From positions 1,116,706-1,180,705 of the forward strand of contig CAWGSA010000001.1 of NCBI GenBank assembly GCA_963825175.1: a stretch of DNA of 64,000 nucleotides, given 5' to 3'. Positions within the stretch are counted from its first letter, which is position 1; each line of letters begins with the position of its first letter. The translations under genes were made by a program, and so were the position numbers. Below the pieces are notes generated by a model. It searched no databases, was not told where the DNA came from, and was given only the letters and a program-made list of their open reading frames with translations. Positions 505 through 6,027 of the stretch are shown here, piece by piece. Source of the stretch: an uncultured Acidobacteriota bacterium. GTDB lineage: Bacteria; Acidobacteriota; Thermoanaerobaculia; UBA5066; Gp7-AA6.

Positions 505-942
505 TCGCGGCTCCTCGGCGTCCGGATCCGCTTGGCCGGGCCGCTCCCCGCGCGACGGCCGGACCTTGAGCACCCGCTCACGGCGGATCGCGACCGTTCC
601 CTCCGGCGCGCCGCGCGGCTTGGTCACGTCGCGGGCCCGCGTGCAGGAGACCGGCACCACGCCCGCCGCCCGCGCCTTGCTGTGGTAGGCCGCGATGGCC
701 GCGGCCCGCTCGAGCGTGGCGCGGTCCGGCTCCGCGCCGGACGGCCCCTGGAGAATCACGTGGCTGCCGGGGAGGCCGCGCACGTGAAACCACCAATCGC
801 CGGGCTGCGCGACTTCGAAGGTCAACCGCTCGTTGTCCGAGTCGGTGCGCCCGGCCCGGACGGTCCATCCTCCGGGCAGCGCGTACTCGAAGGCGCGCAC
901 GGGCCTGGACACGTCAGGCTCCCGCCAGGGCGCGGCGGGCAA
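502..942 (-). CDS. NFACT-R / DUF814 domain protein
   Basis: ORF track 146 aa. Motif WFHVRGLPGSHVIL is typical of DUF814 (the FbpA/Rqc2 C-terminal RNA-binding domain). Start uncertain; overlaps the upstream gene end by about 29 nt. Confidence 0.5.
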   Translation of the reverse strand: MPAAPWREPDVSRPVRAFEYALPGGWTVRAGRTDSDNERLTFEVAQPGDWWFHVRGLPGSHVILQGPSGAEPDRATLERAAAIAAYHSKARAAGVVPVSCTRARDVTKPRGAPEGTVAIRRERVLKVRPSRGERPGQADPDAEEPR

Positions 943-1447
943 AGCGGCCCAGCAAAGCCGCCGCTACGCACGGCATCCAGACCCAGAGGAGCTCGGAACG
1001 GACGATGTCCAGCCCGCGCCGGGAGAAGAAGCGGCCGACGCCGATGGGAGAAACGAGGATCACGCGCCAGGGAAGGAAGAATCGCGTGTTGGAGAACGGG
1101 CTCAAGAACGCCACGCCCAGCCCGCCGGTCGTCATCGCGTCGAGAAGGCCGTGCGACGCGGCGCTGACGAACACGAGGAGGAAGGCCGCGACCGGCCGCG
1201 CGCCCAGCCGTCCGGCGGCGGCCGCCGCCGCGATCGCGAGCAGGAACGCGAAGACGAGGGAGTGTGTGAAGCCGCGGTGGCCGAGGGGATCGCCGTAGGG
1301 GATGCCGGCGAAGTAGCCGAGCGCGTCCGCGTCGGGAAGCACGCTCGCGGCGCAGGCGGCCGCGACCAGCGCGGGAGGCGCCGCGCGCGGGCCCAGCGCG
1401 ACGGCCATCGCCAGCGGCACCGCGGGGTGCGAGAGGACCGAGGCCAT
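914..1447 (-). CDS. membrane-bound metal-dependent hydrolase (YdjM/DUF457-like)
   Basis: C-terminal 177 aa of the 245-aa ORF, from MASVLSHPAVPLAMAVALG... Hydrophobic segments with GHRGFTHSL and HGLLD motifs. Start codon CAT complement at 1445-1447. Confidence 0.5.
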   Translation of the reverse strand: MASVLSHPAVPLAMAVALGPRAAPPALVAAACAASVLPDADALGYFAGIPYGDPLGHRGFTHSLVFAFLLAIAAAAAAGRLGARPVAAFLLVFVSAASHGLLDAMTTGGLGVAFLSPFSNTRFFLPWRVILVSPIGVGRFFSRRGLDIVRSELLWVWMPCVAAALLGRFARRALAGA

Positions 1448-1474
1448 GACGCGCTCCAATCTCGAAACCGGTGG

Positions 1475-1540
1475 TTCAGTGGTTCGACTGTTCGGCGGTT
1501 CGACGGTCCGACGGTCCGACGGTTCGACGCTCCGAGGCAA
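1475..1540. repeat. tandem array of about 7 octamers GGTTCGAC / GGTCCGAC
   Basis: Sequence ggttcagtggttcgactgttcggcggttcgacggtccgacggtccgacggttcgacgctccgagg, read directly. Intergenic, about 125 nt upstream of the small peptide gene. Confidence 0.7.
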
Positions 1541-1665
1541 AGCCAAGATAGCCCGCCTCTTCAAGCCGCTCAACTCCGGGCGCCGAGCGCCGGGGCTACA
1601 ATTGCTCGATCCCCGCATTCCTGTTTTCCGATCGGCGACCGGCCGCAGCACCGGAGGTGAGCGTC

Positions 1666-1827
1666 ATGGCGACCAAACGCAAGAAGGCTTCGAAGAAGAA
1701 GGCCGTCAAGGCCTCGAAGGTCCGCGTCCGCGACCTCGACGCCCGCAAGGGAAAGGTCACCGGAGGCGGGATGATGGGAGGCTACAGCGGCGGCGGCTTC
1801 TCTGGCGTCATGAAGAAGCCGGTCTGA
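1666..1827 (+). CDS. 53-aa Lys-rich/Gly-rich peptide, candidate RiPP precursor
   Basis: Not in the ORF track because it is under 60 aa. ATG at 1666 is preceded by the SD GGAGGTGA at 1653-1660, and TGA is at 1825-1827. Translation: MATKRKKASKKKAVKASKVRVRDLDARKGKVTGGGMMGGYSGGGFSGVMKKPV. The next gene starts 17 nt downstream. Confidence 0.55.
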   Translation: MATKRKKASKKKAVKASKVRVRDLDARKGKVTGGGMMGGYSGGGFSGVMKKPV

Positions 1828-1843
1828 GCGGCTGGATCTCGAG

Positions 1844-3349
1844 ATGGCGAAGCGCGGCGCTTCGTCGGCGGCGGCAAGCATGGCGGCCGCGACGGACCCG
1901 GATTCCCTGGCGGACCTGGTGGTCCGCTCGCCGTTTCTCGTCCGGGTTCCGATCGATCGGCGCGAGACGGTCCTCTTCCACTCCTTGTGGGGAACGAGCC
2001 TGATTCTCAATCGGGAGGGGGAGGACCTCCTCGATCTCTTTCGAACGCCGGCGCGGCCAGCCTCGGTCCTGACGCGCGCGGCGCGGCGGCTGCTCGCGGA
2101 TACGCTGCGGACCCTGGTGGCCCGGCGATTCCTGGTGCCTCCGCACGCCGACGAGCGCGCGGACTTCATCCGCGCGATGCGCCCGAGCCGGCCCGCGTCC
2201 GGCGCCCACCTGCGCGGGCTGGTCCTGCTGGCCGCGGAGCAATGCAACCTGGCCTGTCCTTACTGCATCAAGGACAAGCTCATGGACCTGCGCTCGGGCC
2301 GCGCCCAGACGCGCATGTCGATCGAGACGGCACGCCGGGCCATCGACCAGTTCTTCGCCGTCGCCGACGGAAACGGGCGAGCCGGCGTGAGCCTCCAGTT
2401 CCGCGGAGGAGAGGCCCTCGTCAACGCCGACGTCGTTCTCCAGGCCGCGCGCTACGCGCGGTCTTTCCGGCCCCGCGGCGCTCTCGACATCTCGATGGTG
2501 ACCAACGCCACTCTCGCGACCGAGGCCGCTGCGGCCGAGATGGCGGAGCTCCAGATTTCCGCGGAGGTCAGCATCGACGGAACGCGGGCCGTCCACGACT
2601 CGATCCGATACACCAAGGCCGGCCAGCCCACGTTCGATGCGGTCATCGCCGGGCTCCGGCGCCTCCTTGCCGCGGGAGTCGCGGTCACCAACGTCAACGC
2701 CACGATGACCGTGGAGACTTTCCCGCGCGTCGGACTGCCGTTCCTCTCCCTGCTCGCTCGACTCGGCGTCCGGCTCCTGAACCTGGAGCCGGACGTTCTC
2801 GCCCCCGTGCACCCCGACCCGCGCGTCGTGACGCGCCGCCTGCTGGCGTTGCGCGAAAGGGGTCGAGCGCTGGGGATCGAGGTCGGCGGATGCTGGGCGC
2901 GACCGCTCAAGGCGATCGGCGAAGTCCGGCGAGGGGCCGGCCTTCCGCCGCCAGCCGACGATGTGCTGCTGGTGGTGGACGCGCTCGGCCAGGTCGTGCG
3001 GTGGGAATACAACCCGGAACGAGAGCTGGGACCGGTGGCGAACCTTCCCGCCGTCCTGGCTTCCCCTGCCTTTCGCCGGCACGTCCAATCGCGCACGCCG
3101 GGACAGATTCCGGAGTGCCGGGGCTGCGAAATCGAGGGTGTCTGTCAGGGCAACGCGAGCTTCGCGCTGCTCTATGAGAGAGCGACGGGCCGGTCCGGTC
3201 TCTTCGAGCACCGGTGCGCGATCCTCCGAGCCATGACGCGCGGCGCGCTGGCGGAACCAAACGATCTCCGGGCAGCGCCTCGCCGCCGCCCGCGCGATCA
3301 ACGCGCGGTGCCGCGCTCGCCGCCGGCCATCACAGGCGCCGGTACATGA
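1844..3349 (+). CDS. radical SAM/SPASM (or twitch) domain protein with N-terminal RRE-like extension; putative peptide maturase
   Basis: CNLACPYCIKD (CxxxCxxC) lies about 125 aa from the N-terminus. The N-terminal region VLFHSLWGTSLILNREGEDLLDLF resembles a PqqD-like RiPP recognition element. C-terminal Cys cluster CRGCEIEGVC ... HRC. Start could instead be M13 at 1880. Confidence 0.8.
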   Translation: MAKRGASSAAASMAAATDPDSLADLVVRSPFLVRVPIDRRETVLFHSLWGTSLILNREGEDLLDLFRTPARPASVLTRAARRLLADTLRTLVARRFLVPPHADERADFIRAMRPSRPASGAHLRGLVLLAAEQCNLACPYCIKDKLMDLRSGRAQTRMSIETARRAIDQFFAVADGNGRAGVSLQFRGGEALVNADVVLQAARYARSFRPRGALDISMVTNATLATEAAAAEMAELQISAEVSIDGTRAVHDSIRYTKAGQPTFDAVIAGLRRLLAAGVAVTNVNATMTVETFPRVGLPFLSLLARLGVRLLNLEPDVLAPVHPDPRVVTRRLLALRERGRALGIEVGGCWARPLKAIGEVRRGAGLPPPADDVLLVVDALGQVVRWEYNPERELGPVANLPAVLASPAFRRHVQSRTPGQIPECRGCEIEGVCQGNASFALLYERATGRSGLFEHRCAILRAMTRGALAEPNDLRAAPRRRPRDQRAVPRSPPAITGAGT

Positions 3350-3818
3350 TCAGCAGGTCGATCCGCCCGAGGCGGCCGTGGCGAAACCCCTCCGGGATGC
3401 GTCCCACGACCTCGAAGCCGTGTTTGCGCCACACGCGAATGGCCGCGGCGTTGGTTGCAACGACGGCGTTGAACTGCATGGCCTGATACCCCGCCGTGCG
3501 CGCGATCGCGAGCGAGTGCTCGCACATCGCGCCGGCGATGCCTCGGCCCCGGGCCTCCGGCGCGACCATGTACCCCGCATTGGCGACGTGCGCACCGAGG
3601 CCGGGCTGGTTCGGTTTGACGCAGTAGCAGCCCACCACCACGCCGCCGTCCTCGGCCACGAAGCACCGCGCGGGCGGCGTGGTCCACAGCTTCCGGGCCT
3701 CCTCCAGCGTCATGGCGGGATCGTACGTGTAGGTGTCCGCGGCGGCGATGACGGCGTGAAAGATCGGCCAGACCAGCCCGAACTCATCGGCCCCGATTTT
3801 GCGGATCTCCAGAGGCAT
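3330..3818 (-). CDS. GNAT family N-acetyltransferase
   Basis: 162 aa with typical GNAT motifs (VGCYCV..., ARGRGIAGAM, hGFEVVGR). Convergent with the rSAM gene, overlapping it by about 20 nt. Confidence 0.85.
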   Translation of the reverse strand: MPLEIRKIGADEFGLVWPIFHAVIAAADTYTYDPAMTLEEARKLWTTPPARCFVAEDGGVVVGCYCVKPNQPGLGAHVANAGYMVAPEARGRGIAGAMCEHSLAIARTAGYQAMQFNAVVATNAAAIRVWRKHGFEVVGRIPEGFRHGRLGRIDLLIMYRRL

Positions 3819-5273: not shown

Positions 5274-5591
5274 ATGGACGACGTCTTCAAGGCTCTCGCC
5301 AGCCCCGCCCGACGGCGGCTGCTGGACGCCCTGCGCGCGCACAACGGACGGACGCTCGGGCAGCTTTGCACGCATCTGGCCATGACGCGTCAGGCCGTGA
5401 CCCAACACCTCGAGCGGCTGGAGAAGGCCAACCTCGTCGTGACCGTTCGCCGCGGACGCGAAAAGTTCCACTACCTGAACCCCGTTCCCATCCACGAGAT
5501 CTACGAACGCTGGATCCGCAAGTACGACAGGAAGCCCCTGGAGGCCCTGCGCGATCTGAAGAAACGCCTGGAAGGAGAGGACCGTGAATAA
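5274..5591 (+). CDS. ArsR/SmtB family transcriptional regulator
   Basis: MDDVFKALASPARRRLLDALRAHNGRTLGQLCTHLAMTRQAVTQHLERLEKANLV shows a winged helix-turn-helix. ATG verified at 5274-5276. Confidence 0.85.
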   Translation: MDDVFKALASPARRRLLDALRAHNGRTLGQLCTHLAMTRQAVTQHLERLEKANLVVTVRRGREKFHYLNPVPIHEIYERWIRKYDRKPLEALRDLKKRLEGEDRE

Positions 5592-6027
5592 GCCCGAGTT
5601 CGTGTACGTCACCTACATCACGACGACGCCGGAGAAGCTGTGGAACGCCTTGCTCGACCCCAAAGAGACCTTCCAGTACTGGCAGCACGAGAACGTTTCG
5701 GATTGGAAGCCCGGCTCGAGGTGGGAGCACCGGGCCTTCGACGAGAAGAGGACGCTCCGTCTGGTGGGCCGCGTCATCGAGAGCTCTCCTCCGAGGCGCC
5801 TGGTCCTGACCTGGGCGTACCCCAACGACACGGCTCCCGAGGACAAGCACTCCCGCGTCACCTTCGACATCGAGCCCGTCGGCGAGGTGGTGCGGTTGAC
5901 CGTGACCCACGAGAACTTCCAGCCGGGATCCGACATGCTCGACCGTATCCGCGAGGGATGGCCCAAGGTCCTCGCGAGCCTCAAGTCGCTGCTGGAGACG
6001 GGCCGGCCCCTTCCCAAGCTCTGGTAG
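5584..6027 (+). CDS. SRPBCC family protein (AHSA1/Aha1-like)
   Basis: 147 aa. GTG start overlaps the ArsR stop. ArsR followed by an SRPBCC protein is a common pair. Confidence 0.7.
   Translation: MNKPEFVYVTYITTTPEKLWNALLDPKETFQYWQHENVSDWKPGSRWEHRAFDEKRTLRLVGRVIESSPPRRLVLTWAYPNDTAPEDKHSRVTFDIEPVGEVVRLTVTHENFQPGSDMLDRIREGWPKVLASLKSLLETGRPLPKLW

Follow-up and report, generated by a model that had tools for sequence, protein, structure and literature searches.

What does a radical S-adenosylmethionine (rSAM) enzyme do to a short, basic, glycine-rich peptide that contains no cysteine? The question is raised by two adjacent genes in a 64-kb stretch of contig CAWGSA010000001.1 from an uncultured Acidobacteriota bacterium (here referred to as the window, meaning the whole 64,000 nucleotides analyzed). 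The first gene (1666..1827, plus strand; ATG at 1666, TGA at 1825-1827) encodes a precursor peptide of 53 amino acids (aa), MATKRKKASKKKAVKASKVRVRDLDARKGKVTGGGMMGGYSGGGFSGVMKKPV, and the second (1844..3349, plus strand) encodes a 501-aa radical SAM maturase. A Shine-Dalgarno sequence, GGAGGTGA (1653..1660, plus strand), lies 5 nt 5' of the peptide ATG, and a GGAGG-like site occupies the equivalent place in orthologous loci. A preliminary description of this DNA had pointed out the short open reading frame (ORF) and its Shine-Dalgarno sequence, both of which are present exactly as claimed. It was also right that the two genes lie close together, although the spacer between the peptide stop codon and the start of the rSAM gene is 16 nt and not the 17 nt given there. 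We consider it very probable that these genes form a real peptide-maturase pair of an undescribed family.

In DNA with a G+C content of 68.8%, as in this window, a short open frame alone means little, and the case for the small ORF therefore needs comparison across sequences. Orthologous loci were gathered by scanning genome and metagenome collections with an alignment of the rSAM family, which comprises ~38 clusters with 51-76% identity to the window enzyme among 5.8 billion proteins (the next match has an E value of 2e-8). The sources are one Acidobacteriota bin, several Rokubacteria/Methylomirabilota bins, one Acidimicrobiales bin, and many soil metagenome contigs, and among the copies nearest to that of the window (74-76% identity) is one on a contig with a peptide that NCBI assigns to a Thermoanaerobaculia bin. 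A homolog of the small ORF with a GGAGG-like site stands directly before the rSAM gene at all 32 loci that have upstream sequence (the window counted), so the co-occurrence of peptide and enzyme that the preliminary description had proposed to check was borne out. The ORFs are 45-66 aa long and 31 of the 32 are intact, the remaining one (L107) being without its N terminus. Independent gene callers predict the peptide gene on four contigs (from Logan, JGI, and ENA) at 51-56 aa, and a profile built from 18 of the peptides retrieves 74 clusters at the 90% identity level (50-84 aa, E values down to 8e-19), all of them unnamed or "hypothetical." Differences among the orthologs fall more often at third codon positions (7,317) than at first (5,690) or second (4,815) positions, an excess that is modest yet consistent with coding. 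A search of the peptide against Pfam and NCBIfam gave no match at an E value of ≤1, and the exact window peptide is not present in the protein collection searched.

The small ORF is a real gene. The opposite explanation, that it is a chance open frame in 69% G+C DNA and that the rSAM enzyme acts elsewhere, could appeal to the many spurious ORFs that high-GC DNA yields and to the absence of the exact window peptide from the protein collection. Against it, the frame, length, Shine-Dalgarno sequence, position, and leader motif are kept across the 32 loci and 74 clusters, the third-position excess points the same way, and the enzyme carries a domain resembling a RiPP (ribosomally made, posttranslationally modified peptide) recognition element (RRE), the known role of which is peptide binding. 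We regard a chance frame as highly improbable.

The peptide alignment divides the precursor into a leader and a core. The N-terminal part of the leader (residues 1-17; 1666..1716, plus strand) is rich in Lys, Arg, and Ala; it varies in length and sequence and is always strongly basic, with whole leaders averaging 13.7 Lys plus Arg versus 2.5 Asp plus Glu. It is followed by a conserved block, KVRVRDLDARKGKVTGGG (residues 18-35; 1717..1770, plus strand), which ends in a Gly-Gly(-Gly) junction. This is the best-conserved stretch of the peptide, with the consensus [KR]x[RQ][VLI]RDLxx[RK]KG[DK][LV]xGGG and invariant D23, L24, and G34; it is presumed to be the RRE-binding motif, and the GG junction is a putative cleavage site. 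The core, MMGGYSGGGFSGVMKKPV (residues 36-53; 1771..1824, plus strand), is Gly-rich and has hydrophobic-[G/S] units and a basic tail. Over 75 cores, the composition is 30% Gly, 11% Phe, and 11% Gln, and nearly every member has a core of 14-20 residues (mean, 17.6), the exception being the divergent L090-type core with 35. Each core is built from two to four units of the form [Q/G/T]-[F>M,L,Y,I,W]-[G/S] at variable spacing, with [FYWMLIV][GS] usually occurring three times per core, and the usual ending is [GSA]-[IVT]-[VIT]-K-K-x-x; 64 of the 75 cores end in G-[IV]-[VI]-K-K, while some have Thr-Thr in the tail or no Val or Ile there at all. No core of the 75 is without an aromatic residue, and Cys is absent from all 75 true peptides.

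The short precursor gene that co-occurs with the enzyme thus combines a conserved leader with a variable core, the usual pattern of ribosomally made modified peptides. The preliminary description had expected the reverse, a conserved G[YF]SG core behind a variable leader; the leader block proved to be the most conserved part, the core varies or is replaced, and the G-[YF]-S-G repeat units are not conserved in orthologs. Replacement is seen in the peptides (L090, 2160-2360, and L091, 1126-1326) that pair with the most divergent enzymes (51% identity), where the basic leader (…AKLKDLDVTQGADPKGG) with its KDL…KGG junction is kept and is followed by a 35-aa core, WFDDFNQKIPINRVDPLKQGINPALPTSGLNKTNG, that is unrelated to the others and not Gly-rich.

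The same features bear on the possibility that the gene encodes a small, basic protein with a role in the cell (binding to nucleic acid or the ribosome, for instance), which keeps its Lys-rich N terminus and for which the rSAM enzyme is a dedicated intracellular modifier. Its N-terminal half is more basic than is usual in a RiPP leader, and its most conserved part lies outside the Gly-rich tail. Moreover, we found no conserved third gene (protease, PCAT transporter, or immunity gene) beside the pair in four annotated contigs or in an all-against-all comparison of ORFs in 18 loci. Two-gene units of an rSAM enzyme and a peptide without a transporter do exist, however, the SCIFF pair being an example. 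The distribution is also sparse and patchy (the ~38 enzyme clusters come from three phyla), which does not suggest a housekeeping function, and the variable core, its wholesale replacement in L090 and L091, and the conserved leader follow the RiPP pattern. We consider a cellular protein of this kind improbable.

To which enzymes is the maturase related? Its membership in the radical SAM superfamily is plain: PF04055 scores 40.8 bits against a cutoff of 29.5, PF13353 being the sole other Pfam match of the 501-aa product. The cluster motif is CNLACPYC (C134-X3-C138-X2-C141; gene segment 2243..2266, plus strand, unchanged throughout the family and 110 outgroup relatives), and the GGE motif F186-R187-G188-G189-E190 is invariant. 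The flanking domains are less readily recognized by family models. PF05402 (PqqD) was detected neither in the full protein nor in the isolated N-terminal domain, the SPASM model TIGR04085 reaches 15.3 bits against a cutoff of 27, and PF13186 (SPASM) is not reported even at an E value of ≤10. Since the PqqD and SPASM models miss threshold, support for an RRE and a SPASM fold comes from a full-length match to TigE, a methyl-cyclopropylglycine synthase with an RRE (residues 3-85), an rSAM core, and a SPASM domain (PMC10878394). In a profile search of PDB sequences, TigE (8VPO) is the one full-length match (E value, 4e-32), and the family profile, beginning at its position 4, pairs with TigE from residue 4 on, in the region of the crystallographic TigE RRE. 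An AlphaFold2 model of the window enzyme (mean predicted local distance difference test score, 82) can be superposed along its whole length on TigE, CteB, and anSME, TigE being the best structural match (Foldseek template modeling scores, 0.73/0.81; identity, 17%).

The model and the TigE alignment predict an RRE-like winged-helix domain at approximately residues 23-100 (1910..2143, plus strand), with strands at 26-28, 32-36, 42-46, and 52-55 and helices at 57-64, 72-75, and 78-93. Superposition and the cysteine alignment predict a degenerate SPASM-fold domain at approximately residues 352-470 (2897..3253, plus strand) that retains only the ligands of the second auxiliary cluster (Aux II). For the PqqD-type RRE of the preliminary description, the TigE match supports a predicted RRE-like N-terminal domain that PF05402 does not detect, and of its "SPASM or twitch" domain the SPASM fold holds, while only the Aux II cysteines remain and TIGR04085 stays below cutoff.

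No NCBIfam model assigns the enzyme to a described family. The best partial matches, which cover only the N-terminal and rSAM-core parts, are to QhpD (score/cutoff in bits, 104/453), a nif11-type maturase (93/519), and PapB (91/340); lower scores are given by YhhB (79/445), anSME (70.8/349), SCIFF ScfB (70/425), FxsB (63/370), and XyeB (45/450); PqqE and MftC are absent from the 25 best of 61 NCBIfam matches. Apart from the rSAM-superfamily domains, neither precursor nor enzyme reaches threshold for a described family in NCBIfam or Pfam, and searches of the literature on the peptide motifs and on radical SAM, SPASM, and Rokubacteria precursor peptides returned no description of the family, in agreement with the earlier view that no described family has this precursor. 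The enzyme groups with the peptide-modifying rSAM/SPASM enzymes TigE, ChlB, and CteB. No specific grouping with anSME or with another enzyme acting on a nonpeptide substrate was found.

What sets the family apart is its inventory of cysteines. For comparison, we searched 1.84 billion representative proteins with the family profile, which gave 253 sequences below an E value of 1e-30; the best 150 were aligned, 110 of them full length. The family itself collapses to ~4 representatives at the 50% identity level, after which scores fall to 279 bits. Eight cysteines are invariant in the family: C134, C138, and C141 of the SAM cluster, C350, C425, C428, C434, and C458. The last four include both parts of the CX2CX5C...C motif that had been noted in the preliminary description along with CNLACPYC. 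When Aux I and Aux II cysteines are told apart as they were for TigE (PMC10878394), C425-X2-C428-X5-C434 (CRGCEIEGVC; 3116..3145, plus strand) provides Aux II ligands that the family has kept, and C458 (3215..3217, plus strand), invariant in the family and present in 100% of outgroup sequences, is the predicted fourth Aux II ligand. The complete seven-cysteine SPASM motif for two auxiliary clusters, CX9-15GX4C ... CX2CX5CX3C ... C, is lost, with P368/P369, W387, and A438 at the three Aux I positions in every family member, Ala438 replacing the fourth Cys of CX2CX5CX3C. Relatives keep the full seven-cysteine pattern: the second and third Aux I positions are Cys in ~100 of the 110 full-length relatives, and the first position (P368/P369) is less cleanly aligned to them.

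The eighth cysteine, C350, is the sole invariant one besides the predicted cluster ligands. It lies in G349-C350-W351 (2888..2896, plus strand), which HMMER aligns (as "SGCWaral" on "TGYWHITY" of TigE) to GYW, a motif that cyclopropyl synthases conserve strictly and whose tyrosine in TigE, Tyr339, ligates Aux I (PMC10878394). Cys occupies position 350 throughout the family (100%) and in 2% of the outgroup, where Y, F, M, and S prevail; E388 and D372 are further family-specific invariants. As read from the alignment, the family appears to hold two clusters rather than three, with one invariant cysteine left as an orphan where Aux I used to be.

Among the nearest neighbors in sequence space, which score 150-280 bits to the family profile, three (P0042, P0044, and P0100) are the closest with readable precursors, all of which are short, basic, encoded downstream of the enzyme gene, and terminated by Cys motifs. 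The P0042 precursor (L162, 1703-1940) reads MFRKINRKR[ST]VRAA[GA]PSCYAGAC and occurs in two tandem copies, that of P0044 (L164, 1528-1647) ends in …ARNPACRSGGCC, and that of P0100 (L168, ~1490-1580) ends in …VQLCGGRTTCCR. By their sequences these follow the sacti-/ranthipeptide pattern, and none of the three enzyme families reaches an NCBIfam equivalog, PapB being the best partial match. The GYW motif is found in ~29 of the 110 full-length relatives (e.g., P0046, P0073, P0078, P0086, P0089, P0095, and P0101). Sequence comparison thus places the family among thioether-type and cyclopropyl-synthase-type enzymes, from which it differs in substrate and cluster content. Separately, the metagenomic relatives that bear GYW represent a diversity far beyond the 49 UniProt entries analyzed previously (PMC10878394), and several relatives (P0043, P0047, P0050, P0055, P0069, and others) are ~1,100 aa long, with the RRE-rSAM-SPASM unit as the C-terminal half and a second matched stretch elsewhere; these are apparently fusion or tandem enzymes.

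How would such an enzyme act on its peptide? We tentatively favor the reading that the pair is a self-contained two-gene RiPP-type cassette whose enzyme is a Cα epimerase using Cys350 as the hydrogen donor; by analogy with known epimerases, we consider this possible rather than probable. The conserved leader block would dock on the N-terminal RRE and bring the short Gly-rich core, with its G-[IVT]-[VIMT]-K-K tail, into the active site of the radical SAM domain. The 5'-deoxyadenosyl radical would then abstract a hydrogen, most likely the Cα hydrogen, from at least one hydrophobic core residue, and C350 would donate a hydrogen from the opposite face, giving D-residues with unchanged mass, after which the remaining Aux II cluster would re-reduce the C350 thiyl radical. 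On this proposal, the enzyme would descend from RRE-rSAM-SPASM peptide maturases, having lost the three Aux I cysteines and gained C350.

The model for this chemistry comes from both known families of rSAM peptide epimerases, in which a single strictly conserved noncluster cysteine is the hydrogen donor (Cys223 in EpeE and Cys372 in PoyD); EpeE has exactly one auxiliary cluster together with its donor cysteine, located on the substrate face opposite SAM (PMC13012085, PMC8326336). Sactisynthases and epimerases are described in a review as differing in whether the Cα radical meets a cysteine of the substrate or one of the enzyme (PMC8326336, PMC13012085). The present family stands apart from its neighbors in the same way: its substrates have lost their cysteines, Aux I, to which the substrate thiolate is bound in CteB-type enzymes, is missing, and a cysteine of the enzyme has appeared at that site. 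A repeatable change of single residues also fits the varied number and spacing of the hydrophobic-[G/S] units and the variety of residues (F, Y, M, L, I, and W) found in them.

Several considerations weigh against epimerization. The reaction is inferred from a cysteine inventory and analogy, and the position of C350 within reach of the substrate is predicted from its alignment to TigE Tyr339 rather than from a measured distance. WprB, which lacks the Aux I cysteines, still forms an oxidative Trp-Arg cross-link (PMC11851443), so that loss of Aux I does not by itself imply redox-neutral chemistry. The aromatic residue in every core would suit a cross-linking enzyme, whereas an epimerase has no obvious need for it, and neither a protease nor an exporter was linked to the pair in the annotated contigs and the 18-locus comparison; export or function of the peptide is a presumed part of the cassette. 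Homology to EpeE and PoyD was not found, EpeE giving no sequence alignment. Taken more widely, the proposition that either a thioether-forming SPASM maturase was independently converted to a leader-dependent epimerase, with the reactive cysteine shifted from peptide to enzyme (C350) and Aux I given up, or the enzyme performs an unprecedented reaction is one that we hold to be a serious possibility, somewhat short of even. The unprecedented reaction may be, for example, glycine Cα chemistry or an aryl cross-link via a Cys/Trp/Tyr relay that replaces the Fe-S cluster.

The constant aromatic residue leads to the main rival explanation, in which the same cassette forms an oxidative C-C (or C-O) cross-link between the aromatic side chain of the core (Phe, Tyr, or Trp) and another close by, such as that of the beta-branched residue or the Lys of the G-[IVT]-[VIT]-K-K tail, with Aux II taking the second electron, possibly by way of a relay of W351, W387, Y389, and C350. 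The aromatic residue persists even in the unrelated core of L090 and L091, and the invariant E388 and D372 could, we suggest, serve as a base for rearomatization. Most Cys-free substrates of RRE-rSAM-SPASM enzymes (those of StrB, WgkB, RrrB, WprB, and the cyclophane maturases) are joined at aromatic residues, and the chemistry of WprB runs without Aux I cysteines (PMC11851443). Known cross-linkers have a fixed spacing, however, and here, depending on the ortholog, the last aromatic residue and any candidate partner lie 2 to 6 residues apart. Phe, moreover, is the least activated aromatic partner, and the cyclophane and streptide-type models score far below their cutoffs. The specific form suggested in the preliminary description, a three-residue cyclophane, fails: the residue two after the aromatic (X3) is Gly at 88 of 156 aromatic sites (56%), including both sites in the window peptide, and Gly at X3 has no Cβ, which excludes this product; the YhhB, FxsB, and XyeB scores given above agree. 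We judge a cross-link of some other geometry to be unlikely, though still worth serious consideration.

A third explanation takes its lead from TigE as the best match in both sequence and structure. Chemistry like that of TigE or TvgB would act on aliphatic side chains at hydrophobic residues preceding Gly or Ser, forming cyclopropane on Val, Ile, or Leu or another sp3 C-C bond, or introducing a desaturation. The substrates of those enzymes, TvgA and TigB, have repeated polar-hydrophobic-Gly/Ser units (TVGG and TIGSVS) (PMC10878394), and the G-[IV]-[VI]-K-K ending of most cores would supply comparable residues. But GYW is GCW in this family, and the TigE variants Y339C, Y339A, and Y339F are all inactive; Aux I, which the proposed TigE mechanism needs, is without its three cysteine ligands here; some tails have Thr-Thr or lack Val and Ile; and identity to TigE is just 17%. 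We think this chemistry has only a slight chance of being the right one.

Other known types were set aside more directly. Spliceases require XYG and were rejected on this ground. A cofactor precursor of the PQQ or mycofactocin type was rejected as well, the accessory genes being absent: no sulfatase, PQQ, mycofactocin, or quinohemoprotein genes were found within ~10 kb on the annotated contigs, which confirms the corresponding statement in the preliminary description. The enzyme does not belong with anSME, QhpD, PqqE, or MftC, given the anSME and QhpD scores and the lack of matching genes nearby, nor with the sacti-/ranthipeptide synthases, given 0 of 75 peptides with Cys and the PapB and ScfB scores. 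The streptococcal enzymes of the GGG family were rejected, GggB forming Cys thioethers (PMC11851443).

The surroundings of the pair vary, and the peptide and rSAM genes are the sole unit shared among lineages. In the window and its closest relative, the upstream flank carries ydjM-like, NFACT-R, and glycolipid-binding genes. Downstream, a convergent GNAT acetyltransferase gene (3330..3818, minus strand) overlaps the 3' end of the rSAM gene by 20 nt (3330-3349), an overlap that recurs on the contig of the closest relative; the GNAT gene is absent from other lineages. Amidohydrolase and ABC-transporter genes flank the pair in Rokubacteria, and IclR and MFS efflux genes do so in another lineage; synteny inside the Rokubacteria subgroup reflects relatedness. 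No extra precursor copies were found in the 64-kb window. A marginal leader-like peptide, P0261 (E value, 0.72), adjoins a DUF1214 gene rather than an rSAM gene and was not counted. One locus (L089, 4074-7056) has a second leader-like ORF without a start codon (…LLQDLAPRKDVKGGAGKNVFGGW…, ~5550-5756), and the 454-aa ORF just upstream of this is cupin/JmjC-like as judged by eye, without a family search. The rSAM frame of L089 breaks after approximately residue 355, and the locus may be decaying or the assembly in error.

The pair may also have its own promoter. A tentative candidate -10 element, TACAAT (1597..1602, plus strand), was read by eye upstream of the window precursor gene and has aligned counterparts in orthologs, where GCATAAT, TACAAT, or GATAAT is kept ~35-75 nt before the peptide ATG (GCATAAT being the Rokubacteria version). 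A scan for two-hexamer sigma-70 promoters found no full site. As a sequence feature, the -10-like element is consistent with a dedicated promoter and cotranscription of the pair. A -10-box-like sequence, CGATCTTACGGCATAATGG, lies ~35-40 nt before the peptide ATG in L003, L005, L006, L082, L083, L085, L088, L097, L101, L102, L104, and L161, and the conserved GACACGTGAAGAGCAT farther upstream marks where the divergent amidohydrolase gene begins on the opposite strand. In the window, the precursor gene and the divergent ydjM-like gene (914..1447, minus strand) are separated by 218 nt, within which lie six tandem 8-mers (GGTTCGAC / GGTCCGAC) at 1481-1529, which could be a regulator-binding array. 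Terminator-like matches inside the rSAM gene were disregarded for that position.

Many uncharacterized rSAM-peptide families exist, and genome mining for rSAM RiPP maturases has leaned largely on the SPASM signature (IPR023867 / TIGR04085). The present family falls below the SPASM threshold, and SPASM-based surveys would therefore probably have missed it. It is notable for its degenerate SPASM domain with an orphan cysteine, for a very basic leader joined to a Gly/Phe core, and for its occurrence in poorly explored soil phyla. To our knowledge, Acidobacteriota and Rokubacteria have almost no characterized natural products, and the secondary metabolism of these hard-to-culture soil phyla is almost unexplored. 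The family also offers a natural experiment on the role of Aux I: relatives keep the cluster and have Cys peptides, and the family has lost both and gained an enzyme cysteine at that site. If epimerization is correct, a third route to D-amino acids in ribosomal peptides would have evolved independently, the first to involve an N-terminal RRE, and the mass shift of -2 Da per cross-link sought in the preliminary description would not be seen. If it is not, the enzyme probably performs new chemistry on an unusually simple Gly/Phe substrate. Either an epimerase conversion or an unprecedented reaction would mean a new class of cationic Gly/Phe-rich modified peptides in Acidobacteriota and Rokubacteria.

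Among characterized enzymes, TvgB and TigE (RadicalSAM.org cluster 1-1-201; PDB 8VPO) resemble the family in their three-part layout, with an rSAM core between an RRE (predicted in the family) and a SPASM fold, as well as in a G-x-W motif at the equivalent place, small gene clusters, and precursors with repeated polar-hydrophobic-Gly/Ser units. They differ in that the family has GCW for GYW and Pro, Trp, and Ala for the Aux I cysteines, as well as a Lys-rich leader. A conserved Val/Ile repeat is not seen either, the repeat unit having mostly Phe, Met, or Leu in place of Val or Ile, which are confined to the tail, and Phe, which predominates, cannot form cyclopropane in that way. With EpeE/YydG (epipeptides) and PoyD (proteusins), the proposed likeness lies solely in mechanistic logic: a Cys-free core, a single strictly conserved noncluster cysteine in the enzyme (together with one auxiliary cluster in EpeE), and a repeatable single-residue modification of hydrophobic residues, as proposed for the family (PMC13012085, PMC8326336). 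Unlike the family, EpeE lacks an N-terminal RRE and PoyD an auxiliary cluster, and both are described in a review as leader independent, whereas the conserved leader of the family suggests RRE-dependent recognition. WprB, which joins Trp-C5 to Arg-Cγ, is similar in reportedly lacking Aux I cysteines, keeping one auxiliary site, and acting on a Cys-free aromatic substrate (PMC11851443); it differs in its WPR motifs and separate partner protein, WprC, and the likeness is drawn from its description rather than from a sequence relationship. XyeB, GrrM/YhhB, and FxsB are likewise rSAM/SPASM enzymes that act on aromatic residues, some in Gly-rich repeats, but the family scores far under their cutoffs and its X3 is mostly Gly. 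CteB and the PapB-like sacti-/ranthipeptide synthases, together with the P0042, P0044, and P0100 enzymes, have the same RRE-rSAM-SPASM layout, and their precursors are likewise short and begin with a basic leader. Their precursors are Cys-ended and downstream and their enzymes keep seven SPASM cysteines, whereas in the family the precursor is upstream and Cys-free and Aux I has been lost. Set beside these systems, the locus is most likely of a known kind, an RRE-rSAM-SPASM peptide maturase with an adjacent precursor, in which both the precursor and the enzyme family appear to be undescribed.

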